From an uncultured Planctomicrobium sp. (GTDB taxonomy: Bacteria > Planctomycetota > Planctomycetia > Planctomycetales > Planctomycetaceae), in the NCBI GenBank assembly GCA_964596215.1, contig CAZQUW010000002.1:16278-58539 (forward strand): a stretch of DNA of 42,262 nt. Direction: 5' to 3'. Position numbers and translations under genes: made by a program. Positions 20,243 to 41,866 of this stretch are shown one piece after another. The notes under the pieces were generated by a model, which saw only the letters and a program-made list of their open reading frames with translations, was not told where the DNA came from and did not search any database. Positions within the stretch are counted from its first letter, which is position 1; each line of letters opens with the position of its first letter.

Positions 20243-21205
20243 TTAGTCTTTCATGCCGATGCGAGTGTCTGCTCGTTCGATGTCATGCAGATTGACATGT
20301 CGGGTCTTGGTGAATTGCGGGGGGCTTTGCTTGAAACGTTCGCGATTGGCCAGCGCGTTAAAGAGGTACAATTCACCATCGAAGAAGGCAGCGTACTTGG
20401 CTGTTCCCGCGATGGCCCGTTCGGTCTCCCACAGGGCGACGGGGTCGCAACCCAGCAACTGAGGAGCATAGCGGGTCGGCTCGGCGATGAAATCGTCGCG
20501 GTCGGCCAGCGAGGCGAAGTAGAAGCGGACCCCTTGGTAATCGGCACCAAATGCGGTCTTGCCTTTGCTCCATTCACGAGTACGCCACAATGTCACCGGG
20601 CAATAACCATCCAGCCCGACGATCAGCCTGGAAGTCTTTTTGGGATCTTTCAATGGCTCGGGAACAATCTCGTCCACTTTCGGAGCAGCAGGTTTGTTCT
20701 GTTGAGCGAGGAGTCTTTCTTCCGCAAGCTTCTTCTCTTCCGCAGCCCGCTTAGCGATCGCCATCTCGTCAGCCGACTTCTTTTCAGCGTTAGAAAGAAT
20801 GGCGAGGTAATTATTGCGTGGCTGGAATCCGACTGTCTTGCCGAGCAGTTTGCCGCTCGGGCTGATCAATACGTCGGCCGGGATGGAGTTAACGCCATAC
20901 TTTTCGGCGATTTCAGGGTGTTGATCGAGATCGATCTTCACGCCGACTACCCGATCAGATAGTACACGTTTGACATCAGCCGTGTTTAAGACATCCGATT
21001 CCATCTGCTTACACGGCCCACACCAGGATGCATGGAAGTGCAGCAAGAGGGGGCGCCCCGTCTGCCGGGCTTCCGCCTCCGCTTCCGCGAAGCTGTGCCG
21101 CCAGTGCTTGTCCTTGGCTTTGGCAGCAAATAACCCGGTTTGTGTTACGAGCAGGAAGCTGAGGATTAACCCAGTCGCCCGCAATGATACGCGGTCGGAA
21201 ATCAT
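20243..21205 (-). CDS. Secreted thioredoxin-domain protein with two C-terminal YHS-like domains
   Basis: The Trx motif is HASWCGPCKQME, followed by a Lys/Ala/Glu-rich linker. Two repeats follow: GYCPVTLW...YQGVRFYFASLADRDDFIAEPTRYAP and GCDPVALW...FFDGELYLFNALANRERFKQSP. The start at 21205 (MISDRVSL, signal) is preferred over 21256. Confidence 0.8.
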   Translation of the reverse strand: MISDRVSLRATGLILSFLLVTQTGLFAAKAKDKHWRHSFAEAEAEARQTGRPLLLHFHASWCGPCKQMESDVLNTADVKRVLSDRVVGVKIDLDQHPEIAEKYGVNSIPADVLISPSGKLLGKTVGFQPRNNYLAILSNAEKKSADEMAIAKRAAEEKKLAEERLLAQQNKPAAPKVDEIVPEPLKDPKKTSRLIVGLDGYCPVTLWRTREWSKGKTAFGADYQGVRFYFASLADRDDFIAEPTRYAPQLLGCDPVALWETERAIAGTAKYAAFFDGELYLFNALANRERFKQSPPQFTKTRHVNLHDIERADTRIGMKD

Positions 21206-21707
21206 GTCCAACACCTCGACAGAATTCGAACTGACAACTTGACCTGGTTGGCCCATCCCCTCAGGTTTCGCCCGTCATGGCAATCGTCCATGAATTGCCT
21301 ATTCCCTTACATCTGGTTAGATGCCGCGTTATCCACGCGGTGACAGGGTTGCGATGCGTCACTGCATCCTGGCCCGTCGGGGAAGTCGACCATCATAGCT
21401 TTCGTAATCGATTTCTCCAGCGAATGCGGAAAATAGTCGCCAGACTGCCCAAACATACCCCTTGACGGGTGAGACGTGATTTGCTGAGTGTTAAGACTAT
21501 TATCGGCGTGCGCTGCCTGCCGAGTTGGGCTTCGATTGGAAAATTTACTGGCGAACGATTAGCTTGCGAAACGGATAGTCATGTCTCGCGGGGCTGGGGT
21601 AGAATCGGGGGTTTGCCGAACGTTCCTGTTTTCCGAGCTGGGTGGGGACGTACAGCCCTTGGCGTCGCATCTCGACTCAATGCCGCTCCTCAGATTCCCC
21701 CAAGACG

Positions 21708-23061: not shown

Positions 23062-25635
23062 TTAACCATACGGATTACGCAGGAATTTGTTGTAGGGCAG
23101 CCGCACATTGCGGTAGGTATACTGATCGGCCCGGATGCTGGTCGGCGCTGCATAGCCACTGATCGCCGCGGTCGTAACGACATCGTCCTGATCCACGCCG
23201 TCGCCACTGACACCCAGGCCGCCGACGAGCACGCCATTCTTGTAGATCCCTGAACTCCCAGGGAAGAAGACCACGCCGTTCTGATTTTCGGATGGGGTGC
23301 TGGTGTTGTGGAAGTTGGTACCAATGTTGAACGAGTCGTATCCCACGGCCGTCTGGAAACTACTCGCAGGAGCCGGGGCTCCCAGGTTTTCGGCATTCTT
23401 GGGATTGATACTGGGTTCGTTCAGAATCGAAAACGCCCCCGGCTTGGTGCCATCCACACCCGACGGATAACGCGGTTCGGCGAGGAAGCGGAAGGTTCGG
23501 GCGGTAAAGGCGACCCCCCTGGGGTTCACCGCAGGATTCTGCTTGGGGATCACGCGATCTTCAGGCTGCAACTGCGCCGGATTGTTGTAGTAGGCCATGT
23601 TGCGGGCTTTGGCGACGGCGACATCCAATGAGAAATAGGTGGCGTCGTCCATCCGGTAAAGTCCCAGCACTTCGCCGGTGGTGTCCGTCACGGCGAAGAC
23701 CATTTTCGTCCGCGTGCCAAGTGGCGCGCGGATGGCAGCACGGACTCGATTGGCTTCGGCGATTCCCTGGTTGATGATCTTGGTGACGTCTGCCGCTGTC
23801 AGCCCGACACCATCATGAGCCGCCACCAGCCATCCGGTCGGCACGGCCGTCCCCGGCAGGAATGTGTCGGTGGGGGTCACCGGCTGGTCTGTTCCATTAA
23901 CCGTTCCCGGCCCCAGCCGGGCCAGCAATTGATTAATCTGTCTGACACCCTCAATACCCGCCGTCGGCCCGATCGCTTCCAGTGTAATGCCGACCAGATC
24001 AATTCTGGGGAATGGTAAGTCAATCCCCTCGACGGGTGGCACGCCCCCCACTGGGCCGGCCTTAATTCCCGCCTGGCGCGAACTGCCAATGGCGGCCAGC
24101 GCGATGGCTTCGGCCTCGAGTACGAGTGGTGCATTGGTGCGGGCGGTGGTGGAGACGCCGTCCCCGTGAACAAAGCCCTGCTCATAGGAGGCGTAGCCGT
24201 CAGGTCCCGGGAAGAAGACGCCGATCCCACCGACGACGGTATCGCCAATCCCATTGCCGTCGGTGTCTCGATACAGCGGAATACCACCCGGCAGCGTGGC
24301 GATGCCGCGCGGCAAGGCATCAGGCATCAAGCCGGACTGCAGGCCGTACGATCCCGGGGCGTTAATCTCCTGAGCTGCGGAGACATAATCCGCGTTAAAC
24401 CGCCCTTCTCCGCCGGGATAGGAATCAATGCTGTCCCGGTTGGTGTGTTCGATGCCAAACAAGTCGACCGGCGGCGTGTGCGAAACGCCCGGCGGGAAGT
24501 GGCCCCCCAGACCGATCGGGGCCACGAATCCCGGGCCGGCAATCGTCGAACTCATGTCGGTGATGCTGGGGTTCGAGTTCACCTCACGCTCGGTGATGGT
24601 CGTCTGGCTGATGAATCGTACGGTGCGTGATGTCAGCACACCCTGATTATTGGAGAAGAAGGCCGCCGTCCGTGCTTCCGCGACGGCGCCGTCAATCGAG
24701 AAGACGAGCGTTGCGAGATCTAACGTAGGGACGTCGGCTTCGGTGCGGACTCCCAGGATGATCCCCTGCCGGTCCGTGATGACGATAATCGCATCCTGGC
24801 TGGGGGTCGCCGCCGATGCTCGGTCCAGCAATTGTTCCACATCTGTTGTTGTTAACTGTGGATCACCGGAGAAAACAGAGGCCAGCGTTTCCGGGTGGAC
24901 CGCGTCGGCAATAATCGAGGAACTACTGGTTGATGACGTCGTGGTTGTCGATCCGCTGCCGGTTAAGTTGAGTCCCAGGCCTGGCACCGCGGAAGCACTA
25001 TTGGTTCCAGAGGACGTCGTTTCCGTGGAATTGCCAATGTTGCCCGACCCCACCTCCGGATCTGTCGTGGTGGTGGAAGTGGTGGTCGTCCCTCCCGTCG
25101 TGGAACTGTTGGGCTTGCTCGAAGCCGATTCGGCTTTCGAGGCCTTTCGAGCCGCTTTCGCTGCCGCCCGCTGTTCCGCCTTGGCCGCCTTCAGCAGGCT
25201 CTTCGAGTTGGCAGACTTGGACCCCTTCAGCGCGGTCCCCAATTTCTCGGTGCTCCCCGCGGAAGGCTCCGTGGACGCTACACTTAAGGGCTGGTTGACG
25301 ATCGCTTCGCTCAAGTTCGTCGAGTCATCGGAGAGGACGCTTGGGGATGCGACCGCTGGCTGAATGACCAATGAACTCGATTGAGGTGCGGAGTCCGGTT
25401 GTGTCGAGGACGTAGCAAGTACCGCGACTTCCAGATTGGCAAAGTTGGATGCCAAATTGGGCAATGCGGAGGGAACGAGCTCTCCTAGAAGTGCCCGTTC
25501 TTCCAGACTCTCTGTCTGCGTTCCCGTGCGGCGCGAAGTTGTTCTCCGGGCCGGTGTGGTACGCCAATTTCGCAGCCAGCTTTTCCAGACTTCTACTGCC
25601 ATACTGATCTCCGTGGCCGGCCCAATACGTCGCAA
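23062..25635 (-). CDS. Large secreted protein with two GlcG/HbpS-like (DUF336, haem-binding/degrading family) domains
   Basis: The product is 857 aa. The N-terminus has an Arg-rich segment followed by SLEERALL. A KAAKAEQRAAAKAARKASKAE block and Ser/Thr-rich spacers follow. Domain 1 has IIVITDRQGIILGV...IDGAVAEARTAAFFSN...LPGGIPLY...VVGGIGVF. Domain 2 has MVFAVTDTTGEVLGLYRMDDA...LDVAVAKARNMAYYNN...VLVGGLGVSGDGVDQDD. Confidence 0.8.
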   Translation of the reverse strand: MRRIGPATEISMAVEVWKSWLRNWRTTPARRTTSRRTGTQTESLEERALLGELVPSALPNLASNFANLEVAVLATSSTQPDSAPQSSSLVIQPAVASPSVLSDDSTNLSEAIVNQPLSVASTEPSAGSTEKLGTALKGSKSANSKSLLKAAKAEQRAAAKAARKASKAESASSKPNSSTTGGTTTTSTTTTDPEVGSGNIGNSTETTSSGTNSASAVPGLGLNLTGSGSTTTTSSTSSSSIIADAVHPETLASVFSGDPQLTTTDVEQLLDRASAATPSQDAIIVITDRQGIILGVRTEADVPTLDLATLVFSIDGAVAEARTAAFFSNNQGVLTSRTVRFISQTTITEREVNSNPSITDMSSTIAGPGFVAPIGLGGHFPPGVSHTPPVDLFGIEHTNRDSIDSYPGGEGRFNADYVSAAQEINAPGSYGLQSGLMPDALPRGIATLPGGIPLYRDTDGNGIGDTVVGGIGVFFPGPDGYASYEQGFVHGDGVSTTARTNAPLVLEAEAIALAAIGSSRQAGIKAGPVGGVPPVEGIDLPFPRIDLVGITLEAIGPTAGIEGVRQINQLLARLGPGTVNGTDQPVTPTDTFLPGTAVPTGWLVAAHDGVGLTAADVTKIINQGIAEANRVRAAIRAPLGTRTKMVFAVTDTTGEVLGLYRMDDATYFSLDVAVAKARNMAYYNNPAQLQPEDRVIPKQNPAVNPRGVAFTARTFRFLAEPRYPSGVDGTKPGAFSILNEPSINPKNAENLGAPAPASSFQTAVGYDSFNIGTNFHNTSTPSENQNGVVFFPGSSGIYKNGVLVGGLGVSGDGVDQDDVVTTAAISGYAAPTSIRADQYTYRNVRLPYNKFLRNPYG

Positions 25636-26224
25636 GTGTATTGTCTATTGCAAGTTGTAAATCGGCTGCAGGACACATGGCCGCTGCTGTCGCGATGTGA
25701 TTTCAGACTCTTGACGTTCGACCTGATGTCGTTGGATGCGTCAAATCTTGAGCCGTTCGCGAGGCGGACCGGCTGCTCCCGACTTACGGTAGTTATTCAG
25801 TCGTCCGTAAGACGCGTGACTCCGTGTCATCAAGCCGTGAAAATTAATCACCTGAGTAAAAAATGTCGGAACAAGCCGCACAGTCGCTAAATACTGCCCA
25901 GACTCTCTGTTTTTCCCGGCGTATCACTCATCTGCGGTCATGGTGTTCTGTAAGTTACTTACCCGAAAACCTTTACGATCTAATTGCATGGACTGCAGAC
26001 CCGCCGGCAAGACCTAATGTCTCGACCGTTACATTCGGCCACGTCATCTTATTGCGACATATTCCTTAGACGCCGGATAATCCCGAGAAGTTTCCTGAAC
26101 TACCGAACCGATACTGACGAGGTATCAAAATCGAAATTCGCCGGATGATCGTTAAAGCGATTCATCTTTTGACTTTCGCCTGTACCGGACAACTTGTTCC
26201 ACGCCAAGTAGCCGAGCCCTCTGT

Positions 26225-28282
26225 GTGCAATTGAGAATTCGAACTGACAATCAGCATGGCCGTCCGGAATCAGGAGAAACACACATCTCCTGGCAACGGC
26301 AGCGCTGCGCCTCTTCGCGGCTGAAAGGGTGGGCCGGGTTCATCCTCGCATTGTTGTTCGCATTGCCGCAGGACTTCCCGATCGCCCAGGCCCAAAGTGA
26401 CTCGCCTGGCGTCGCCACGCTCAATGACAATGAAGAAGCCGCAGTCCCCACCACAGATGAATCAGTCACCGGCGAAGCCAGTAGTATTGAACCGCTGACC
26501 GAGATTCTCGATGGAGATGTCGAGCCGAAAATTCTGCGACGTCCGTTACAACCGCAGGACACAGAACCCCTCACCTCGGACCAGCCAGACCTGGACCAGT
26601 GGGTCGAACCGAATTTCGATGCCCCCTTGGGGTATACCGGAATGTCAGGCATCGAACCGTTGGAATCTCAAACCAGCGGACATTTCGTACCAGTTGAAGA
26701 TCGCTGGCGTTCAGGCTTCCCCGAGTGGGATCGCTATGGCACTGGTTATGTGCCTGTGGATGACGTTCCCTACGAAGTTGGCCATTGGTGGGACCCCTTT
26801 AATCAGAATGTATTAAAGGGCGATTACCCCATCGCCGGTCAGCACACATTCCTGAATATCACGGCGACGAATTTCCTGATTTTCGAACCGCGTGCCGTGC
26901 CGACCCCGACCACGCCCTTTGAAAGTACGCAGCACCCGGATAGTCCCAATTTCTTCGGGAACCCCAATCAGCTGTTCGTTTCGAACTTCATGCGTTTCTC
27001 GTTCAATCTGTCACACGGCAATGCGTCCTTTAAACCGGCCGACTGGCAGTTGCGTTTGACGCCCGTGTTCAACATGAACTACTTGAATGCGAACGAACTG
27101 GGAATCGTCAATCCTGACGTGCGATATGGGACCACCCGCTTCCGCACGCGGGGTGCGCTGGAAGAATGGTTTTTCGAAAAGAAGCTGGCTGATCTGAACG
27201 GCGATTACGATTTCGTTTCGGTGCGGGCGGGTTCGCAACCGTTCATCAGCGATTTTCGTGGCTTCATTTTCTCAGATACCAACCGAGGCGTGCGGCTCTT
27301 TGGTACGGCCCAGGCCAATCGGCATCAGTACAATCTGGTGTTCTTCGATCAGACCGAGAAAGATACCAACAGCCAGCTGAATACCTTCGACGATCGTCAT
27401 CAGAACACGATTATCGCCAACTACTACATGCAGGACTTCGCGTTCCCCGGCTATACCTCGCAGTGGAGCTTCCACTACAACCGCGATCAACCCAGCTTTA
27501 AGTTTGATGCCAACAATTTCTTAGTCCGTCCCGATCCCGTCGGTGTGTTTCGACCGCACCAGGTGGAAGCATACTATTTTGGTAATGCAGGCGACGGGCA
27601 TATCGGTCGGGTTAACATCAATCACGCGTTTTATTGGGTCGTCGGTAATGACAGCTTTAATCCCCTGGCGGGGCAGCGCGTGGATATCAACGCCAAGATG
27701 GCAGCCATTGAGCTGTCCTATGATCGCGACTGGATCCGGTTTCGCGGTTCTTATTTCTACTCGTCGGGCGATACGAATATCAAAGACCGGGATGCCACCG
27801 GTTTCGATACGATTCTGGACAATCCCATTTTTGCCGGCGGCCAGTTCAGCTATTGGCAGCGGCAGCAGATTGGCTTGTTCGGGACCAGCCTGGTCAATCG
27901 CATGAGCCTGGTGCCCGACTTGCGATCGAGCAAATTCCAGGGGCAAAGCAACTTTGTGAACCCCGGCCTGCAACTGTTCAATGTGGGCTTCGATGTGGAT
28001 GTGACGCCGCAGTTGCGGTTTATTCACAATACGAACTTCCTGTACTTTGATTCGACGAAAGTTCTGGAGCAATTCGTATTTCAGGACAACATTTCCCGCA
28101 CGATCGGCACGGACCTCAGCCTGGGCATGGAGTATCGTCCTTTGCTCAACAATAACATCGTCATTACAGCGGGGGCCGCTTCGCTGCTGCCCGGTGCGGG
28201 TTTCCAGGACCTTTACCGCAATCCCGACTCACACGTTGACCCCTTGTATTCCTCGTTTGTTGAGTTGGATCTCACCTATTGA
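26225..28282 (+). CDS. Predicted outer-membrane beta-barrel protein
   Basis: The product is 685 aa, with a GTG or TTG start at 26225 or 26231. The signal ends ...ALPQDFPIAQA|QS. No Cys follows the signal. The sequence has many alternating aromatic/polar strands and a VRAGSQPFISDFRGFIF segment reminiscent of the GRQ motif of alginate-export-type barrels. The C-terminal residue is aromatic (VELDLTY). Confidence 0.7.
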   Translation: MQLRIRTDNQHGRPESGETHISWQRQRCASSRLKGWAGFILALLFALPQDFPIAQAQSDSPGVATLNDNEEAAVPTTDESVTGEASSIEPLTEILDGDVEPKILRRPLQPQDTEPLTSDQPDLDQWVEPNFDAPLGYTGMSGIEPLESQTSGHFVPVEDRWRSGFPEWDRYGTGYVPVDDVPYEVGHWWDPFNQNVLKGDYPIAGQHTFLNITATNFLIFEPRAVPTPTTPFESTQHPDSPNFFGNPNQLFVSNFMRFSFNLSHGNASFKPADWQLRLTPVFNMNYLNANELGIVNPDVRYGTTRFRTRGALEEWFFEKKLADLNGDYDFVSVRAGSQPFISDFRGFIFSDTNRGVRLFGTAQANRHQYNLVFFDQTEKDTNSQLNTFDDRHQNTIIANYYMQDFAFPGYTSQWSFHYNRDQPSFKFDANNFLVRPDPVGVFRPHQVEAYYFGNAGDGHIGRVNINHAFYWVVGNDSFNPLAGQRVDINAKMAAIELSYDRDWIRFRGSYFYSSGDTNIKDRDATGFDTILDNPIFAGGQFSYWQRQQIGLFGTSLVNRMSLVPDLRSSKFQGQSNFVNPGLQLFNVGFDVDVTPQLRFIHNTNFLYFDSTKVLEQFVFQDNISRTIGTDLSLGMEYRPLLNNNIVITAGAASLLPGAGFQDLYRNPDSHVDPLYSSFVELDLTY

Positions 28283-28315
28283 ACTGTCGCCAGAAAACAA
28301 ATCTCAGGCGAGCCG

Positions 28316-28381
28316 GGTGGTGTAAGCCCCCGTGTTCTTGATTCACGACTGGTTACGAAGAATCCCGGGGCTTATGCCACC
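28316..28381. repeat. REP-like GC-rich hairpin in the barrel/cytochrome intergenic spacer
   Basis: GGTGGTGTAAGCCCC (28316-28330) pairs with GGGGCTTATGCCACC (28367-28381), giving 15 bp including 2 G-U pairs. The 13-mer GTAAGCCCCCGTG (28322-28334) recurs at 8370-8382. Confidence 0.5.
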
Positions 28382-28489
28382 GGGCTTACCTGATTCAGTT
28401 GTTGTTTGCGTTTGCATTAATCATCAATATGACCAGCGTAACTCGTGTTGAGTGCACCTCACGAGCCAAGTTTAGAATTTAGCGCAAGG

Positions 28490-31400
28490 ATGCGCAGTAT
28501 GTCTTCATCATTACAACGCCTCTGGCCAGTCACGGGACTCGTCGGAGTCCTGGTTGCCGGGTGGCTGTGTGGATTGTCGCGGGATGGTTACCAACCGTCC
28601 GCGATCGCGCAAGAGCCGCGCGTCGTTCGAGCCGGGTTTTCCCGCGTGCCCAATTCGCCGGGCGCACCTGTTAATGCCTCTGCTGAACCCTTTCCGGTGC
28701 CGGCGGAACTGCGCGAAATAGATCTGTCGCAGCAGACTGCTGAAGAAGCCTGGGCCAAGAGCTGGGGCTGCGTCGCCTGTCATGATGGAGCACATGATCC
28801 GCATGCGAAGAGCACGGTACGCCTGGGGTGCACTGACTGTCACGGCGGCAACGCGAATTGCCAGACCAAGGAACAGGCCCATATCAATCCCATCTATGAC
28901 AACGCCTGGATTTCGTCTGCGAATCCCGTGCGTTCTTATACCCTGTTGAATAAGGAATCGCCGTCGTTTATTCAGTTCGTCAATCCTGGCGACTTGCGAG
29001 TCGCCCATCTGAGTTGCGGGTTGTCGGGCTGTCATCCCCAGGAGACACTGGCGGTTAAGAAGAGCATGATGACGCACGGCTGTATGCTGTGGGGGGCGGC
29101 TCTGTACAACAACGGTGCCGTTCCAGATAAGCACGCGCGGTACGGCGAGAGCTACAGCATGTTCGGGACACCACAGCGGCTTCAGACCGTCCCCCCGCCG
29201 ACCCCTTATGAAATGGAAAAAAAGGGAGTTCTCCCGTTCCTGGATCCCCTGCCTCGTTTTCAGATTTCTCAGCCAGCGAACATCTTGCGCATTTTTGAAC
29301 GAGGCGGCCGGTTCTTTAATGAAACGGGCATCCCCGAACCCAAGGAGGAACCGGGACGGCCGCGGGCCAAGGTCGGCGTGCGTGGCCTGGGAACGCAGAA
29401 TCGCACCGATCCGGTCTTCATCGGACTCCAGAAGACCCGTTTGCTCGACCCGACGCTCAACTTCCTGGGGACCAACGATCACCCGGGAGATTTCCGCTCC
29501 AGCGGCTGCACCGCCTGTCATATGATCTATGCCAATGACCGGTCTGAAATTCATTCCGGCCCGTATGCCAAGTACGGCCATCTGGGACACGCGGCGGCCG
29601 AGCCCGATGATCTGGTGAAAACGGTCGATCCGATGATTCCCAAGCACGAATCGGGGCATCCCGTTGAGCACAAGTTTACGCTGTCGATTCCGACGAGCCA
29701 GTGCATTGTCTGTCATATTCATCCTGGTACGACTGTCATGAACAGCTACCTGGGTTATATGTGGTGGGATAATGAAACAGACGGAGAGTTGATGTATCCC
29801 GAGAAGGCGAAGCACCCGTCTTCCGAAGAAATGATTCAGTCCCAGATGTCGAATCCCGAGGAGGCGGCCGCGCGCGGGAACTGGTCTGAACCTGAGTTCC
29901 TGGAGAATGTTCGCGAGCTGAATGGCAGCCTCCGGCACACGCAGTTCGCCGATTTCAACGGCCACGGCTGGGTGTTCCGCGCCGTCTATAAGAAGAATCG
30001 CGAAGGGACGCTGCTCGATCACTTTAATAACCCGATTGAGAATGTCTCGAACGAGCAACTGCAACAGGCGATGAAGCTGCCGTTACAGCATAAGGGGCTG
30101 CATTTTACCGGTCAGGAGATGGCCGAACTGGAGGCGGCGAAGCAGAAGCTGGAACAGTGTCAGCATCAGACTCCCGTGCATTTGATGGACATCCACCTCG
30201 AAAAGGGCATGCATTGCATCGACTGCCACTTCATCCAGGATGTGCACGGCAATACCAAGCTGTATGGCGAGGTGCGGGCGGCGATTGAGATCCAGTGCAT
30301 CGATTGTCACGGTACGACACGCGAACGTGCCAACCTCCGGACTTCTGGCCCGGCGGCGACCGAACGACTGGCGCCGGCCCCTTCAGGGCGAAATCTGTCC
30401 GGCATGCGGACACCCTTCGGAAAGCGCCGCTTCGAGAAACAGGGGGGGCGCATCGTCCAGAATTCGATGGTCGAACCGAACCTCAGCTGGGAAGTCAAAC
30501 AAGTTGCCGACACGATCGATCCTCAGCATCCGGCCTATAACGCCCTCGCGGCGCTCGCCAAGACCGTCCGCTTCACGGACGACACCAAGACAAAGATGAC
30601 GTGGGGCGACGTCCCTCCGGAAGGGCATGGCTGTGCACACGCCAATGACAACATGAGTTGCATTGCGTGCCATTCAGCCTGGAATCCGAGCTGCTACGGC
30701 TGCCACCTGCCGCAGAAGGCAAACAAGAAGATGCCGGATCTGCATAACGAAGGTGATGTCACCCGCAACTATGTTTCTTATAACTTCCAGACTCTGCGCG
30801 ACGATGTTTATATGCTGGGCCGGGATGGTGATGTGACTGGCAATCGGATTGGCCCGTCGCGTTCGTCCTGTGCCGTTCATGTGGGGTCTTATAATGCCAA
30901 CCGTGAATCGATCTATGTGCAGCAGCAGACCATTTCGGGTGAAGGGCTGAGCGGCATTGCCTTCAGCACGAACGTCCCGCACACCGTGCGTGGCAAGGGC
31001 GAAACGAAGACCTGCGTTGATTGCCACGTGTCGCGCGATAACGACAACAATGCCGTCCTGGCCCAGCTGTTGATGCAGGGGACCAATTACCTGAATTTCA
31101 TCGGTCGCTATTGCTGGGTGTCGGCGGGCGAGCACGGTTTGCATGCAGTGGAAGTGACTGAACGTGATGAGCCGCAGGCGGTCATCGGCAGCAGTCTGCA
31201 TCGACTGGCGTTCCCGGATCGCTATGAAAAACATCTCGAAAATGGCAGTGAGCTTGAGCACGAACATGAACATCCGGGGATCGATATTGCGACCAAGTTG
31301 CGGCATCCGCGGGCAAAGGCCGAGATTCTCAACAGCCAGTTGCGTGGCGAATATCTCTATGCTGCTTGCGGTACCGGCGGGTTCCGCGCGTTCGACGTGG

Positions 31401-32581
31401 CCTTCATCGATCATAAGGGATTTTCAGAGCGCATCGTGACGGCCCCGGTATCTCCGGCCGGACAGCGTTTCTATGTCCCGACCCAGTACGCCACGGCAGT
31501 CGCGGCTCCGTCCACGATTGTGCCCGATCCGACACGTACCCATCGGCCGGAAAATAAAGAGCAGCATGTGCATCCCTTGTATGCCTACATTTATGTCACA
31601 GACAAATGCGAAGGGTTGATCCTGATTGGCGCCGGAACATTCCTCGACGGCAATCCGATGAATAATTTCCTGGAACGGGCCTTAACGTATAATCCCGACG
31701 GCATCTTGAACGGTGCGAAGAATATCTCGATTGTCGGAACTTATGCGTACATCTGCTGTGACGCCGGGCTGGTGGTGGTCGCGCTGGATGATCCGCTGCA
31801 TCCGAAGATCACCGCGGTGCTGGGTGAGGAGCAGAACCTGCATCATCCGCACGCAGTGCAGGTCCAGTTCCGCTACGGTTTTGTCTGCGACGAGCAAGGT
31901 GTCAAGGTCATCGACACAACTCACCTGGCGCAACCGCACTATGTCTCAGGCATTGAGCTGGCTGAAGCCCATAACATTTATGTGGCCCGGACCTATGCCT
32001 ATGTGGCGGCTGGCTCACAGGGGCTGGTGATTCTGGATGTGAAGAATCCGCTCGATCTTAAGATCGATCAGGTGTTCGATGCCGGCGGATGCATCAACGA
32101 TCTCCATGATGTGAAACTGGGCATCACCTATGTCAGTGAGTTTGCCTATCTGGCGGATGGTGTCAACGGGCTGCGGGTGGTGCAGCTGACGTCACCCGAG
32201 ACCCCGGGCAACGATGGTTTCACGCCCCGCCCGACACCGAGCCTGGTGGCCAGCTTCAAGTTGCCGAAGGACGGCCATGCCCTCTCTATTTCGAAGGGGG
32301 TCGATCGTGACCGGGCCGTGGATGAGTCTGGAAATCAGCTGGCGGTATTCGGGCGGGTGGGGGCCCGTCCGTTGAATCTGGCTGAGCAACAGAAGCTCTA
32401 CATGCGACCCGACGGCAGCGTCTGGGATGTGCAGGACGTCCAGCGTGATTTCCAGATTGCCGATCCGCGCGACCGCGAACACGATTACGCGAAACGGCTC
32501 GCCGACGCCTACGGACCGATGCGGCGGCCCGGGCCGGAACGCATTACGCGGGCCGCCGGTACACGCCTTTTGCGAAAATAG
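28490..32581 (+). CDS. Multihaem c-type cytochrome (9 CxxCH + 1 CxxxxCH) fused to a C-terminal LVIVD-repeat beta-propeller
   Basis: The haem motifs are CVACH, CTDCH, CGLSGCH, CTACH, CIVCH, CIDCH, CIDCH, CIACH, CYGCH and CVDCH, spanning 28769-31027. The N-terminal signal or anchor is [16 protein letters not shown]. About six LVIVD-type blades follow ([64 protein letters not shown]) at 31352-32206. The start is 28490 or 28499 within ORF 28445-32581. Confidence 0.85.
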
Positions 32582-37176: not shown

Positions 37177-38994
37177 GTGTCACTAGACTCGCCGAATTTT
37201 GATGACATTCTCCGCAAGTCATTACTGGAACGAGGTCTTGTTCGGCAGAGAGCCCGTAAGTCGCCTTACTGGACCTGCTGGTTGTCCTGGAGCCTGGTGG
37301 GACTGGCCGGATGCGCGACTTTCGACAGCAAATATGAGCGTGTCGAAATCACCAGCCCCGATTCGGCGTCGGCGGGTATCGCCACTGCCAGTGGTGGAAA
37401 AGGGGCTGGGAAACTCGTCGTACCACGGGGCATGAAGAGTGATAGATCCGGCCGAACCGGAAGCATCACGCAAACGTCTTATAAGCCTGCAGCATCCGGC
37501 AAGTTTGCAGACGTTGATGACACGACCGCCCGCGTCTCAATCTCGACGAAGCACGGCAGGGAACCAATTTCGGCCATCCAGCAAGTGGCCTTCTCGCAGA
37601 CGGATGCTGCGGAAACAGTGAAGGATCCCGCAGTTCCAGAAAAGAGCGGCATCGAGGTCCCGGAGGTCGGTTCCGGTGAATCCTCGAAACCAGAGGCTGC
37701 CGCGCCAGAACCGCCCGTTCCTCCAGCAGGTCCTATCGTTGATACGGCGATTGAGATCCAATCGCCCGACGGGGCAACCGGGATCAACCTGGATCAGACG
37801 ATTAACTTCTGCATGATCTCTGACCCCGTCATTCGCGCAGGACTGGAATCGATCAATCAAAGTAATGCCGAGGCCCTGACGGCGTCGTTGATCCCCAACC
37901 CCCAGTTCTTCACCGATCTGCAGCTGATGCCGCTGACCCACAAGTTTACCCCCACGCGACAGGGCGGACCCCCCCAGTTTGATGCCATCCTGTCGTACCC
38001 CATCGACTGGTTCCTGTTTGGCAAACGCGCCGCGATGATGGACGCTACCGACCTGGGTGTGCGGGTGAGCCAGTCTGAGTATCAGGATCTGGTTCGCGTG
38101 CGTGTGCTAGAGGCTGCCGTCAGCTATTACGGCGTGCTGGAAGCCAAAGCGTTGCGCGACGTGGCCCGCCAGGATGTCGAGAATTTTCGCCGGATCGAAG
38201 CGCTCACCAGTTCGGCCGTCGATAACGGGGGCCGGGCCAAAGTGGATCTCAACCGCATTCGCCTGGACCGCCTGAGAAGCGAGCACTCGTTGCGTGATGC
38301 CGAAAATGCGCTGATCGCGGCCTTTGCCCGGTTGCGGGTTTTACTGGGGGCTGATGTCAACGATCCCGCATTCGATGTCATCGGATCGCTGGATGCGGTG
38401 AATATGATCGAACCGCTCCCGATTGATGAGGCCGTGCAAATTGCGGATCAGAATCGCCCCGATCTGGAAGCTGCCCGCTGGAAGATTGCTCAAGCCGATG
38501 CCTTCATCGAATCCGAACGTCGCAAAGCGTATCCGACCGTGGTTCCCAGTTGGGGTTACACGCGGCAGTATCAAAACAAAGCCATTGGCTTTCCCAACGC
38601 CGATTCCTGGCTGGTCAACATGACCGTGTCTCTGCCATTTTTTGACCGCAACCAGGGCAACCAGGCGAAGGCCTCGTCGGTGGCGGCCCAAGTCGGGTAC
38701 CAGCTGCAGGCACGACGCGTGGCATTACGCGGTGAAGTCGTCAAAGCAACCCAGGAGCTGACCACCTCTGCCGCCAATTCGCAGGCTGTCGCCCAAGAAC
38801 AACTCGAGATCGCCAGGCAGGTGCGGGACAGCATTAACGCCTCCTATGAAGCGGGGGGGAGTCCCTTGCTGGATGCCCTGGATGCACAACGCAATTATCG
38901 TGAAACATACCGGTTGTTTATCATCAGTCGCGCGAACTATGCGCGGGCCGCCATTCAATACAGCGCCACTCTGGGCCAGCAAATGACACCCTGA
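37177..38994 (+). CDS. TolC/NodT-family outer-membrane efflux lipoprotein with a long N-terminal low-complexity extension
   Basis: The gene has a GTG start and a lipobox (LVGLAGC). About 190 residues rich in Ser/Ala/Pro/Glu come next. The two-repeat OMF body follows (INLDQTINFCMISDPVIRAG..., ...QRNYRETYRLFIISRANYARAAIQY). Confidence 0.85.
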   Translation: MSLDSPNFDDILRKSLLERGLVRQRARKSPYWTCWLSWSLVGLAGCATFDSKYERVEITSPDSASAGIATASGGKGAGKLVVPRGMKSDRSGRTGSITQTSYKPAASGKFADVDDTTARVSISTKHGREPISAIQQVAFSQTDAAETVKDPAVPEKSGIEVPEVGSGESSKPEAAAPEPPVPPAGPIVDTAIEIQSPDGATGINLDQTINFCMISDPVIRAGLESINQSNAEALTASLIPNPQFFTDLQLMPLTHKFTPTRQGGPPQFDAILSYPIDWFLFGKRAAMMDATDLGVRVSQSEYQDLVRVRVLEAAVSYYGVLEAKALRDVARQDVENFRRIEALTSSAVDNGGRAKVDLNRIRLDRLRSEHSLRDAENALIAAFARLRVLLGADVNDPAFDVIGSLDAVNMIEPLPIDEAVQIADQNRPDLEAARWKIAQADAFIESERRKAYPTVVPSWGYTRQYQNKAIGFPNADSWLVNMTVSLPFFDRNQGNQAKASSVAAQVGYQLQARRVALRGEVVKATQELTTSAANSQAVAQEQLEIARQVRDSINASYEAGGSPLLDALDAQRNYRETYRLFIISRANYARAAIQYSATLGQQMTP

Positions 38995-40085: not shown

Positions 40086-40393
40086 AGTCGAAAATCCTTC
40101 GTCCCGAGAGTACTGCGCGTGGTCATGGAGTGGGAAGTTTACAACGCTTTGGCCGGAACCGTCCAGTTGCATTGACCTGCCTGAAGAATGGCGGCCGCCG
40201 TGTGCGATCAGACTGACCGGGCTCATTGGAACGGCACCGCCACCCAGGATTGAGTCACAGGGCCCAAAGTCATACGACGGGGCCGCGAGACAACCGTGGA
40301 AAAGATAAGGTTGTCGTGAGTGAATCGCCGAGATAACATGAGCGATTGCTTATGTTTGCGATCTTGACGGTGTTGAGTGGAAGGTCCGCATTG

Positions 40394-41866
40394 ATGTCAG
40401 ACTCACAATTAACACGTCCCGCTCATCCGATTTCCCGGCGCACTGCGCTGCAGGCGGGGTCATTGGGCCTGTTGGGATTGTCGATGGCCGACGTGGCGCG
40501 CTGGCGCCAGACAGCGGCGCAGGCCGGCATTCCGGGGCCACGCCCCAAGTCAGTCATTTACATCTTTCTGACCGGCGGACCGTCGCAGCATGACACGTTC
40601 GATATGAAGCCGGAAGGCCCGGCGGAGTTCAAAGGCGAATTCAGCCCCATCGACACGCAAACCCCGGGTTTGCAGATTTGCGAGGGACTGCCATTACTCG
40701 CACAACGCAGCCAGAAATGGGCCCTGGTACGCTCCCTCAGCCATGCGGAAAGCGGGCATCAGGAGGGAACTTATGTCATGCTGACGGGGAGGTCCGCAAT
40801 CCCTTCCAGCTTTCGAGCCAGCAAGCCGCAGTCGACAGATTGGCCGTCGATCGTCGCTGTCGCCGGACATGCGACAGAACGCCGCAATAATCTCCCCGGC
40901 GGGGTCGTCTTGCCCGAGCGAATCGTCCATTCGAACCAGGGAGTCTACCCCGGTCAATTTGCGGGACTGATGGGCAGTCAGCACGAGCCGTGGTTCATCG
41001 ATGCGACCGACAAACCTCATGCTTATCATTCGTATTCCGGGGCATTCCCCAAGTACCTGTTCGATCTGCATAAAGGCGAACTGTCCGACAAGCTGGACTG
41101 GCGGTTCGAAGTTCCCAATCTGACCCTGCCGGAAGGGGTGTTTGACAAACGTTTTCAGCAACGGATGAACTTGCTGGACATCGTCGAGCAGCAGCGGCGG
41201 CAACTGGAGATCAAGGCGGCGGCGACTGGCTATGACCGCGTTCGGCAGTCTGCGATTTCATTGATGGGTGACGCCAAGGTGCGGCATGCATTTGATGTGC
41301 GCAAGGCTGACCCGAAGACGCTCGCCCGGTATGGAGACAACTCGTTCGGCTGGTCATTATTGATGGCCCGCCGCCTGGTGGAAATCGGCGTCAACATGGT
41401 GCAGGTCAATCTCGGCAACTTTGGCAGCTGGGATCTGCATGGAAACAACTTTAAGAACCTCAAGGATTACCTGTTTCCCCCAACAGATCTGGCGGTTTCC
41501 GGCTTGCTGGATGACCTGGAAGAACACGGGATGCTCGATGATACGCTGGTCGTCATGGCGGGCGAATTTGGCCGGACGCCGAAGATCTTCAACGTCGCAC
41601 CCAAGATTTATAAAACGCCGGGCCGTGACCACTGGGCACCACTGCAATCGGTCTGGTTCGCCGGGGGCGGCGTGCGGGGGGGAACAATTATTGGGGCGTC
41701 TGACCGGAACGGGGCCTACCCCACCGCCGACATGCAGACTCCCGAGAATTTCGCGGCGACGATCTATCATGCCTTGGGAATCCCGCGGGAAGCCGTCTGG
41801 CATGACGCCGCCAGTCGGCCGTATCACGTCTATCAGTCGGACCCAATCGAAGGCTTGTTTGCGTAA
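40394..41866 (+). CDS. DUF1501 domain protein (sulfatase-like fold, Tat signal)
   Basis: The Tat signal is ISRRTALQAGSLGLLGLS. The conserved blocks KSVIYIFLTGGPSQHDTFDMKPE, MAGEFGRTP and GRDHW are typical of Planctomycete DUF1501. Confidence 0.9.
   Translation: MSDSQLTRPAHPISRRTALQAGSLGLLGLSMADVARWRQTAAQAGIPGPRPKSVIYIFLTGGPSQHDTFDMKPEGPAEFKGEFSPIDTQTPGLQICEGLPLLAQRSQKWALVRSLSHAESGHQEGTYVMLTGRSAIPSSFRASKPQSTDWPSIVAVAGHATERRNNLPGGVVLPERIVHSNQGVYPGQFAGLMGSQHEPWFIDATDKPHAYHSYSGAFPKYLFDLHKGELSDKLDWRFEVPNLTLPEGVFDKRFQQRMNLLDIVEQQRRQLEIKAAATGYDRVRQSAISLMGDAKVRHAFDVRKADPKTLARYGDNSFGWSLLMARRLVEIGVNMVQVNLGNFGSWDLHGNNFKNLKDYLFPPTDLAVSGLLDDLEEHGMLDDTLVVMAGEFGRTPKIFNVAPKIYKTPGRDHWAPLQSVWFAGGGVRGGTIIGASDRNGAYPTADMQTPENFAATIYHALGIPREAVWHDAASRPYHVYQSDPIEGLFA

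Follow-up and report, generated by a model that had tools for sequence, protein, structure and literature searches.

A conserved outer-membrane barrel and decahaem cytochrome-propeller gene pair of Planctomycetes, probably an undescribed cell-envelope redox system

The window that we analysed, a 42,262-nt stretch of DNA from an uncultured Planctomicrobium sp. (GCA_964596215.1, CAZQUW010000002.1:16,278-58,539), contains two co-directional genes in the region 26225-32581: gene 1, for an outer-membrane beta-barrel protein, and gene 2, for an exported ten-haem c-type cytochrome that ends in a beta-propeller (Table 1). An initial annotation, made from the letters alone, had singled out this pair as a possible porin-cytochrome electron conduit, and both open reading frames (ORFs) lie where it had placed them. 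Comparison of gene order among relatives strongly indicates that genes 1 and 2 are a real functional pair, and the barrel and the ten-haem cytochrome probably form an undescribed cell-envelope redox system. The two-gene pair is real, but the conserved unit reaches further upstream than the annotation had drawn it, onto the minus strand.

The two genes are co-conserved far beyond chance, both in Planctomycetota and on contigs binned to other phyla. Among 72 informative loci, defined as those sequenced for 1 kb or more beyond the barrel gene, 61 carry a gene 2 homologue no more than 1.5 kb downstream of the barrel gene and on the same strand, and in one more the cytochrome gene lies 5.8 kb away. 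At E ≤ 0.001, gene 1 has more than 4745 homologues and gene 2 more than 7974, almost none of which has been named, and in a scan of one genome per species a relative of gene 1 is encoded in at least 587 species. Of the best 80 barrel loci, almost all bear a Planctomycetota label (Pirellulales, Gemmatales and Planctomycetales), and Isosphaeraceae members also occur in the families. For the module, identity across orders is 57-70%, and cultured strains such as Neorhodopirellula pilleata Pla100 and Isosphaeraceae bacterium EP7 have it. Further away, a search among haem-domain representatives (2788 at 50% identity) brought up divergent cytochromes 39-41% identical to gene 2, and each of these has directly upstream of it a gene whose 528-558-aa product shares 28-30% identity with gene 1. 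The barrel-cytochrome order is kept in L087 (Ca. Xenobia), L088, L089 (Binataceae) and L090 (Oligoflexia), and the same order is found on contigs with barrel relatives labelled Binataceae, Oligoflexia, NC10 and Thermoanaerobaculia. Adjacency at such low identities is seen in bins of Eremiobacterota, Binatota and Oligoflexia, with the caution that the phylum labels of metagenome bins call for. In L090, the stop codon of the barrel gene overlaps the start codon of the cytochrome gene (ATGA), and because of this overlap the two are probably translationally coupled there. Three other loci are labelled Ca. Kuenenia stuttgartiensis, Chitinophaga and Alcaligenaceae (L006, L009 and L050, respectively); given that their barrels are 61-65% identical to the Planctomycete query, we set these labels aside as probable binning or naming errors. 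L006 carries the cytochrome gene, and both L006 and L050 carry the HbpS-like gene discussed below.

The pairing has exceptions. Ten of the 72 informative loci, mostly from Gemmataceae/Limnoglobus, have a barrel homologue with no cytochrome gene in the sequenced downstream flank (L023, L026, L030, L045, L050, L076, L078, L079, L081 and L082), and their unpaired barrels may reflect a paralogue or a relocated cytochrome gene; L085, a Gemmataceae-related contig, retains the pair. Such loci, together with a strong hairpin between genes 1 and 2 that could separate their expression, would fit a general porin whose gene adjoins that of a periplasmic cytochrome by chance, with no direct functional link. 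We regard this as very improbable, because adjacency and order persist at 28-30% barrel identity and in several phylum bins, stop and start codons overlap in L090, an accessory HbpS-like gene accompanies both, and both families are large.

The initial description of gene 1 as a beta-barrel is borne out by structure prediction. An AlphaFold2 (AF2) model, built from a 32-sequence alignment, gives 18 strands, with values of the predicted local distance difference test (pLDDT) mostly between 70 and 86, for residues 206-685 only. When the barrel was compared with the PDB by Foldseek, AlgE structures came first (E 1.8e-13 to 1.9e-11, template modelling score 0.55-0.62, target-normalised), followed by OprD/Occ channels, chitoporin and the Campylobacter MOMP, all of which are 18-strand channels, and MtrB was absent among the leading matches. 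The gene that models in this way as a barrel is also syntenic with gene 2. Its product ends in LTY, giving the aromatic C-terminal residue that had been pointed out, and the mature protein is free of cysteine, as the sole Cys (residue 28) falls within the predicted signal peptide; the latter has a long n-region, which holds Cys28, an h-region WAGFILALLFAL and the cleavage motif AQA↓Q. What misleads is the likeness in size to the MtrB/PioB proteins of ~700 aa, since the barrel is made by residues 206-685 alone and has 18 strands. The hidden Markov model (HMM) searches that had been suggested for gene 1 (MtrB_PioB, alginate-export and other porin families) returned no family at all, whether from Pfam-A (hmmscan, E ≤ 1) or from NCBIfam, and sequence searches of the PDB with the single sequence and with the 32-sequence profile also gave no match. 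We considered gene 1 as a member of Alginate_exp (PF13372), which one distant relative, P0405, does carry, and rejected it: hhalign against the Alginate_exp protein of L001 yielded a probability of 0.1%. Because of this negative comparison, the link of the predicted barrel to AlgE is deemed structural, and in sequence it is very remote at most.

Within gene 1, segment conservation is 0.78 for residues 130-205, 0.77 for the strands and 0.85 for a 68-residue loop between strands 13 and 14, L7, which is the most conserved long segment of the protein and which, by topology, would be extracellular. No putative surface loop is variable, and such invariable surface loops are unusual for an outer-membrane protein; this suggests that the conserved loops fold into the lumen, bind a partner, or both. 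At the other end of the protein, members of the gene 1 family bear variable N-terminal periplasmic domains (HEAT, CarboxypepD_reg and AMIN). Variable periplasmic N-terminal domains are typical of barrels that dock periplasmic partners.

Gene 2 was described initially as encoding a protein with ten haem-attachment sites, and ten there are: nine CxxCH motifs and one CxxxxCH (C191-H197). All ten sites are invariant across 30 homologues that are 67-89% identical, the third being CxxCH rather than CxxxxCH in a few of them, and we estimate that ~0.03 CxxCH motifs would be expected by chance in a protein of this size and composition. No other ORF in the 42-kb window has two or more CxxCH motifs. The homologues have Sec-type signals ending in AxA↓Q and no lipobox, and with these signals and the ten invariant sites, at which haem attachment is predicted, gene 2 stands as an exported decahaem cytochrome. 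The start codon affects the distance between the two genes, which is 162, 207 or 216 bp depending on the choice made; the 207 bp of the initial annotation fits an ATG at 28490. A start at ATG 28499 is likely, because an identical database protein (P0121) is 1360 aa long. The haems are sparsely placed: the ten sites span 750 aa and lie on average 83 aa apart, two of the gaps being 164 and 171 aa long. Mean column identity among the 30 homologues is 66% across Planctomycete orders, and 15 His residues outside the motifs are invariant. This degree of sequence conservation is unusual for surface electron-transfer cytochromes, which are typically less conserved than gene 2.

The C-terminal ~370 aa of gene 2 match the LVIVD family (PF08309) with 39.4 bits against a gathering cutoff of 20.2, as do 29 of the 30 homologues; five LVIVD-like repeats are visible between residues 970 and 1246, and the predicted propeller is of the seven-blade type. 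In the haem region (residues ~100-900), Pfam matches are weak (Cytochrom_c3_2, c7 and c554), and PDB searches with the single sequence and the profile found no solved relative of gene 2, only a marginal match to the YncE propeller (E 0.026). The best named match is ExtM (NCBIfam NF040943; E 1.7e-19, in three partial stretches), and we rejected membership, since its 69.6 bits fall short of the cutoff of 800. The search among haem-domain representatives gave no bridge to a named cytochrome family either, as the best 150 of the 2788 belong to the same family or are fragments. No Pfam or NCBIfam family covers the barrel of gene 1 or the haem domain of gene 2, and a cluster look-up for names and accessions returned 'hypothetical protein' only.

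Table 1. Positions of the features of the barrel-cytochrome locus, as nucleotides of the window (nt) or residues of the encoded protein (aa).
Feature	Position	Strand	Basis
Gene 1, outer-membrane beta-barrel protein, 685 aa	26225-28282	+	ORF list
Gene 1, signal peptide	aa 1-55		
Gene 1, variable linker, acidic/Pro-rich	after signal peptide, before aa 130		
Gene 1, conserved unstructured segment	aa 130-205, nt 26612-26839		
Gene 1, 18-strand beta-barrel	aa 206-685, nt 26840-28279		AF2
Gene 2, decahaem cytochrome with LVIVD propeller; maximal ORF 1378 aa from GTG	28445-32581	+	ORF list
Gene 2, ten haem sites, beginning at aa 109, 129, 191, 355, 420, 591, 618, 739, 750 and 857	nt 28769-31027	+	
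Gene 2, LVIVD beta-propeller, C-terminal ~370 aa	~aa 960-1330, nt 31322-32434	+	Pfam PF08309
Long stem-loop, gene 1/gene 2 spacer	28304-28394	+	RNA folding
HbpS-like/DUF336 large exported protein, 857 aa	23062-25635	-	Pfam PF03928
Small exported protein, 142 aa	22518-22946	-	ORF list and tblastn from relatives
Divergent intergenic region, 589 bp	25636-26224	.	between HbpS-like gene and gene 1
Promoter-like site TTGCGA-N18-GATAAT	26052-26081	+	sigma-70-like match
Palindrome GATAC-N7-GTATC	26110-26126	+	just downstream of promoter-like site

Divergent from gene 1 is the gene of a large exported protein that matches PF03928, a family named after HbpS, a haem-binding protein of Streptomyces, in two stretches (49.5 bits, cutoff 25), and PDB sequence matches to EfgA/GlcG and to the C-terminal domain of PduO were also obtained. 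A homologue adjoins the barrel gene in ~50 of the 84 related loci and is found also in L085, L086, L089, L090 and L092. In loci labelled Oligoflexia and Thermoanaerobaculia, the HbpS-like gene lies upstream of the barrel gene and is co-directional with it in a three-gene operon; in L090 the HbpS-like gene overlaps the barrel gene, and L092 has the same co-directional trio of HbpS-like, barrel and cytochrome genes. In the window, the protein has an Arg-rich N-terminus that contains the motif ESLEERALL (25470-25500, minus strand), a linker rich in Ser and Thr, and a conserved C-terminal region of ~600 aa. Planctomycete HbpS-like proteins, those of L001, L002, L004 and L085 included, start with such an Arg-rich stretch and a form of the motif, which in relatives reads VESLEDRQLL, VERLETREMM, VETLEDRTL or LERLEERCLM. 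This N-terminus differs from a classical signal peptide in the Planctomycete proteins, and its motif may be a signal for export or sorting that is specific to the lineage; in Oligoflexia, the homologue bears a lipoprotein signal (LLSAC) instead. Just downstream of the HbpS-like gene, the 142-aa ORF is matched by small proteins of L002, L004 and L085 (tblastn, E 1e-8 and 1e-7), and a small protein is encoded at the same spot in 32 related loci, with no Pfam family assigned to the 142-aa protein. The small protein is the fourth conserved member of the module in Planctomycetes, where both it and the HbpS-like protein belong to the unit.

These exported partners bear on a reading in which the barrel would be an export or anchoring device that brings the cytochrome-propeller protein to the cell surface, perhaps along with the HbpS-like protein, with the propeller binding a polymer or mineral and the barrel playing no part in the passage of electrons or substrates. 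Propellers of the LVIVD and choice-of-anchor-B/PorZ-like kinds typify surface proteins, and the long Ser/Thr-rich linker and Planctomycete-type N-terminal motif of the HbpS-like protein, as well as the lipoprotein signal of its Oligoflexia homologue, would suit such a role. AlgE-class barrels, to which Foldseek leads, translocate polymers, and the HEAT and AMIN N-terminal domains of gene 1 relatives recall the periplasmic domains of secretion-associated barrels. We nevertheless hold surface display to be improbable: to our knowledge, no 18-strand barrel of the AlgE/OprD type has been shown to secrete folded proteins, a folded, haem-loaded protein of ~150 kDa is too large for such a pore, and no POTRA or Omp85-type domain is matched by Pfam in gene 1.

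Judged by the neighbouring genes in relatives, the pair stands at the outer end of a chain of electron transfer. Of 40 Planctomycete loci whose sequence extends at least 3 kb beyond gene 2, 13 continue with an operon for 4-, 5- and often 10-haem cytochromes; the downstream flanks hold 30 multihaem ORFs in 221 kb, compared with 1 in 171 kb of upstream flank. The operon proteins are ~460-630 aa each, and the operon, which is present in L002, L012, L014, L022, L027, L028, L035, L036, L044 and L049, is usually convergent with the barrel-cytochrome pair. Inner-membrane functions appear in the more distant loci: L087 (Xenobia) encodes a polytopic membrane protein with weak matches to DUF4405 and cytochrome b561 and a membrane-anchored 13-haem cytochrome, and L088 and L089 encode a 4Fe-4S/cNMP-binding protein, a polytopic membrane protein and a multihaem-flavoprotein fusion. 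Each fusion (L089:3829-6123 and L088:2278-6168) is one polypeptide with a single hydrophobic segment between its 8-9 CxxCH motifs and its Pyr_redox_2 region, and is encoded beside the 4Fe-4S/cNMP-binding and polytopic membrane proteins. Transfer of electrons from the cytoplasm through the inner membrane could be its role, and such an architecture would in itself be unusual. Because relatives add multihaem cytochromes and inner-membrane electron-input genes to the pair, a chain of electron transfer ending at the outer membrane is plausible. The 4-/5-/10-haem operon and the other associated electron-transfer genes of relatives are not in this window.

Such a chain raises the question of whether the pair is itself a conduit, as the initial annotation had proposed by analogy with Mtr and Pcc systems. 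Part of this proposal holds, namely the barrel, the exported decahaem cytochrome and their co-conservation. Like MtrCAB and MtoAB/PioAB, the locus has a barrel gene beside the gene of a ten-haem c-type cytochrome, both with exported products. The analogy itself does not hold for HMM matches, strand number, haem density or lipoprotein: MtrB and PioB have ~26 strands, which makes a barrel that can sheathe a decahaem rod, and match Pfam MtrB_PioB, whereas gene 1 has 18 strands and no match; MtrA packs ten haems closely in ~330 aa, whereas gene 2 has ~1360 aa, one site per 83 aa and a C-terminal propeller; and Mtr/Pcc clusters encode a surface multihaem lipoprotein of the MtrC/OmcB type, of which there is none in this window. 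The module thus resembles Mtr/Pcc in gene logic only and fails each testable defining feature.

A conduit of a new architecture would be another matter. In it, part of the decahaem protein or of a partner cytochrome would insert in the 18-strand barrel, and electrons would pass across the outer membrane between periplasmic multihaem carriers and extracellular donors or acceptors, for example Fe, Mn or humic substances. The adjacency of barrel and multihaem genes on contigs binned to several phyla fits this, as do the extra multihaem operons and inner-membrane electron-input genes of related loci, the resemblance of the propeller to cell-surface families, and the conserved putative external loops of the barrel, which could mean contact with a surface partner. 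Small barrels have also been proposed to carry electrons in Cyc2. The strand number and missing MtrB_PioB match speak against it, as does a barrel fold class of substrate and polymer channels. The cytochrome, at ~1360 aa, is haem-sparse and no slim rod; CxxCH is absent from gene 1, including its conserved N-terminal segment; the window has no gene for a lipoprotein or surface cytochrome; and the very high conservation of the cytochrome is unlike that of typical surface electron-transfer cytochromes. In addition, the lineages that bear the module are mostly aerobic heterotrophs. We therefore consider a conduit of this kind possible and rather unlikely.

Other known systems resemble the module in single traits. 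In Cyc2, too, a small barrel and c-type haem together make up a proposed electron route through the outer membrane, and Cyc2 differs in that its single haem motif lies on the barrel polypeptide; as the barrel polypeptide of gene 1 has no CxxCH and its mature form is Cys-free, a fused porin-cytochrome of the Cyc2 type is ruled out. AlgE, OprD and Occ proteins share the 18-strand architecture and are the best structural matches of gene 1, while gene 1 differs from AlgE in having no Alginate_exp HMM match, no polysaccharide-synthesis genes nearby, and an extra conserved N-terminal segment of 75 aa and long linker. Haem c and a beta-propeller recur together in cd1 nitrite reductase, quinohaemoprotein dehydrogenases and hydrazine synthase. 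These enzymes, like gene 2, join haem c electron-transfer modules to a beta-propeller in an exported protein; they have 1-2 haems c (hydrazine synthase in its alpha subunit) and a cofactor-bearing propeller, whereas gene 2 has ten sites, and we identified no cofactor site in its LVIVD propeller and no sequence relation to them in PDB sequence and profile searches. The hydrazine synthase homologues that have been described (PMC12758564) belong to another family than gene 2.

The ext clusters of Geobacter (ExtHIJKL-MNOPQS) also combine a porin-like gene with several multihaem cytochromes, by a mechanism that is unresolved (PMC5877670). [quoted passage not shown] Gene 1 has no sequence relationship to ExtI, and the rhodanese, selenoprotein and bc-type genes of the ext clusters are absent from this window. 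Closer in taxonomy, within the superphylum of Planctomycetes, Verrucomicrobia and Chlamydiae (PVC), clusters of a barrel and a multihaem cytochrome in Verrucomicrobia were likewise hypothesised from gene order alone (PMC5615132); at least 20 transmembrane segments are predicted for the porins there, and the partner cytochromes are periplasmic, with eight haem sites (He et al. 2017, PMC5615132). Unlike this module, these clusters have no propeller fusion and no HbpS-like partner. In the literature searched, we found no published description of the module, the nearest reports concerning other families; this includes a 2026 preprint on electron transfer in peat, which we set aside as a description of it.

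Taken with these comparisons, a new envelope redox module in which the barrel serves as dedicated channel or docking partner of a decahaem-propeller oxidoreductase may well be what the locus encodes, at what we would judge a little under an even chance. The decahaem-propeller protein would be the redox-active subunit, closer to an oxidoreductase than to a simple wire, and would trade electrons with periplasmic multihaem carriers, such as those encoded next door in many relatives. The barrel would be its dedicated outer-membrane partner, a specific channel and/or a docking site for the cytochrome, giving it access to a substrate or partner from or to the cell exterior, and would not be an MtrB-type sheath around a haem rod. 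We favour this reading because the barrel has an 18-strand channel fold, because its conserved N-terminal segment and long loop resemble plug or constriction elements, and because family members carry variable periplasmic N-terminal domains. It also draws on the cytochrome, in which the haems are sparse, the propeller fusion is typical of periplasmic redox enzymes, and the 66% mean column identity is unusual for surface electron-transfer cytochromes. The conservation of residues 130-205 and of loop L7 would match what is expected of the in-folded constriction or plug of specific channels. The analysis shows the structures of the genes, the fold class of the barrel, the conserved haem sites with the propeller, the signals for export and the tight co-conservation; a physical association of the two proteins, any direction of electron flow and a channel role of the barrel are inferences, and the decahaem-propeller subunit is probably periplasmic.

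Several observations weigh against an enzyme with its own channel. The ten loci with unpaired barrels have been mentioned. The N-terminal 204 residues of gene 1 have no usable AF2 model, which leaves the plug putative, and it is equally conceivable that an external partner docks on the conserved, putatively extracellular loops of the barrel. In the cytochrome, no catalytic motif or enzyme family is assignable, the AF2 model of residues 50-1000 has a mean pLDDT of 39.7, and the invariant His residues suffice for all ten haems to be bis-His ligated, so that a wire fits equally with an enzyme. Hints of a surface location also come from the propeller, which matches choice-of-anchor B weakly (NCBIfam, E 0.008) and, in 23 of the 30 homologues, the N-terminal propeller of PorZ, again weakly.

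The non-coding parts of the locus hold candidate control elements. The region upstream of gene 1 is AT-richer, as had been noticed, with a GC content of 49.6% over 589 bp against 58.2% in the whole window. The promoter-like block and the palindrome in it are kept relative to L005, an 88-90% identical locus, with flanks that have diverged, and the palindrome could be an operator; a further block conserved relative to L005 lies at ~25786-25870. No riboswitch or other RNA family was found by Rfam in 25400-28600, which covers the upstream region and gene 1. The spacer between the two genes (28283-28444) folds with a minimum free energy of -63.1 kcal/mol (z -5.2), a stability equalled in 0 of 200 shuffles, and its stem-loop has no clean T-run behind it. 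In ~7 of 21 related loci, the stop codon of the barrel gene is immediately followed by a comparable long hairpin, and the stem-loop may be an attenuator or messenger RNA stability element that sets the ratio of barrel to cytochrome.

Beyond gene 2, putA begins 246 bp 3' of it, as annotated, and the intervening sequence holds only a weak 5-bp terminator-like hairpin. Its product has Pro_dh, Aldedh and PutA_N domains (Pfam), and we rejected it as a member of the unit, as it is found 3' of gene 2 in 0 of the 84 related loci. Other envelope or redox ORFs in the window are those for a thioredoxin-like protein with a YHS metal-binding domain (20243-21256, minus strand), a TolC-like outer-membrane efflux protein (37177-38994, plus strand) and a DUF1501 protein (40346-41866, plus strand), none of which is kept beside the module in relatives.

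Envelope systems that combine a barrel with multihaem proteins are already known, and the architecture here differs from those described. What makes the module interesting is how widespread and conserved it is and that it lacks any annotation: it is among the most conserved uncharacterised gene sets of Planctomycetes, a group that abounds in soils, sediments and freshwater and on the surfaces of algae, and whose envelope biology and respiratory versatility are poorly understood. As a tentative proposal, about which we are more doubtful than hopeful, the AlgE-like barrel, the decahaem-propeller protein and the putative haem-binding HbpS-like/DUF336 partner would make up a third, structurally distinct class of porin-cytochrome system, near-universal in Planctomycetia. 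If so, this class would extend to contigs from bins of Binatota, Eremiobacterota, Oligoflexia and other phyla, and mainly aerobic, non-model bacteria would exchange electrons with extracellular iron, manganese or humic substances. Current gene-based surveys search for homologues of Mtr, Pcc, Omc and Cyc2; if electrons do move to or from the cell surface through this module, extracellular electron exchange would extend to phyla that such surveys leave uncounted. If, on the other hand, the cytochrome is a periplasmic enzyme with a private channel, it would represent a new family of multihaem oxidoreductases.

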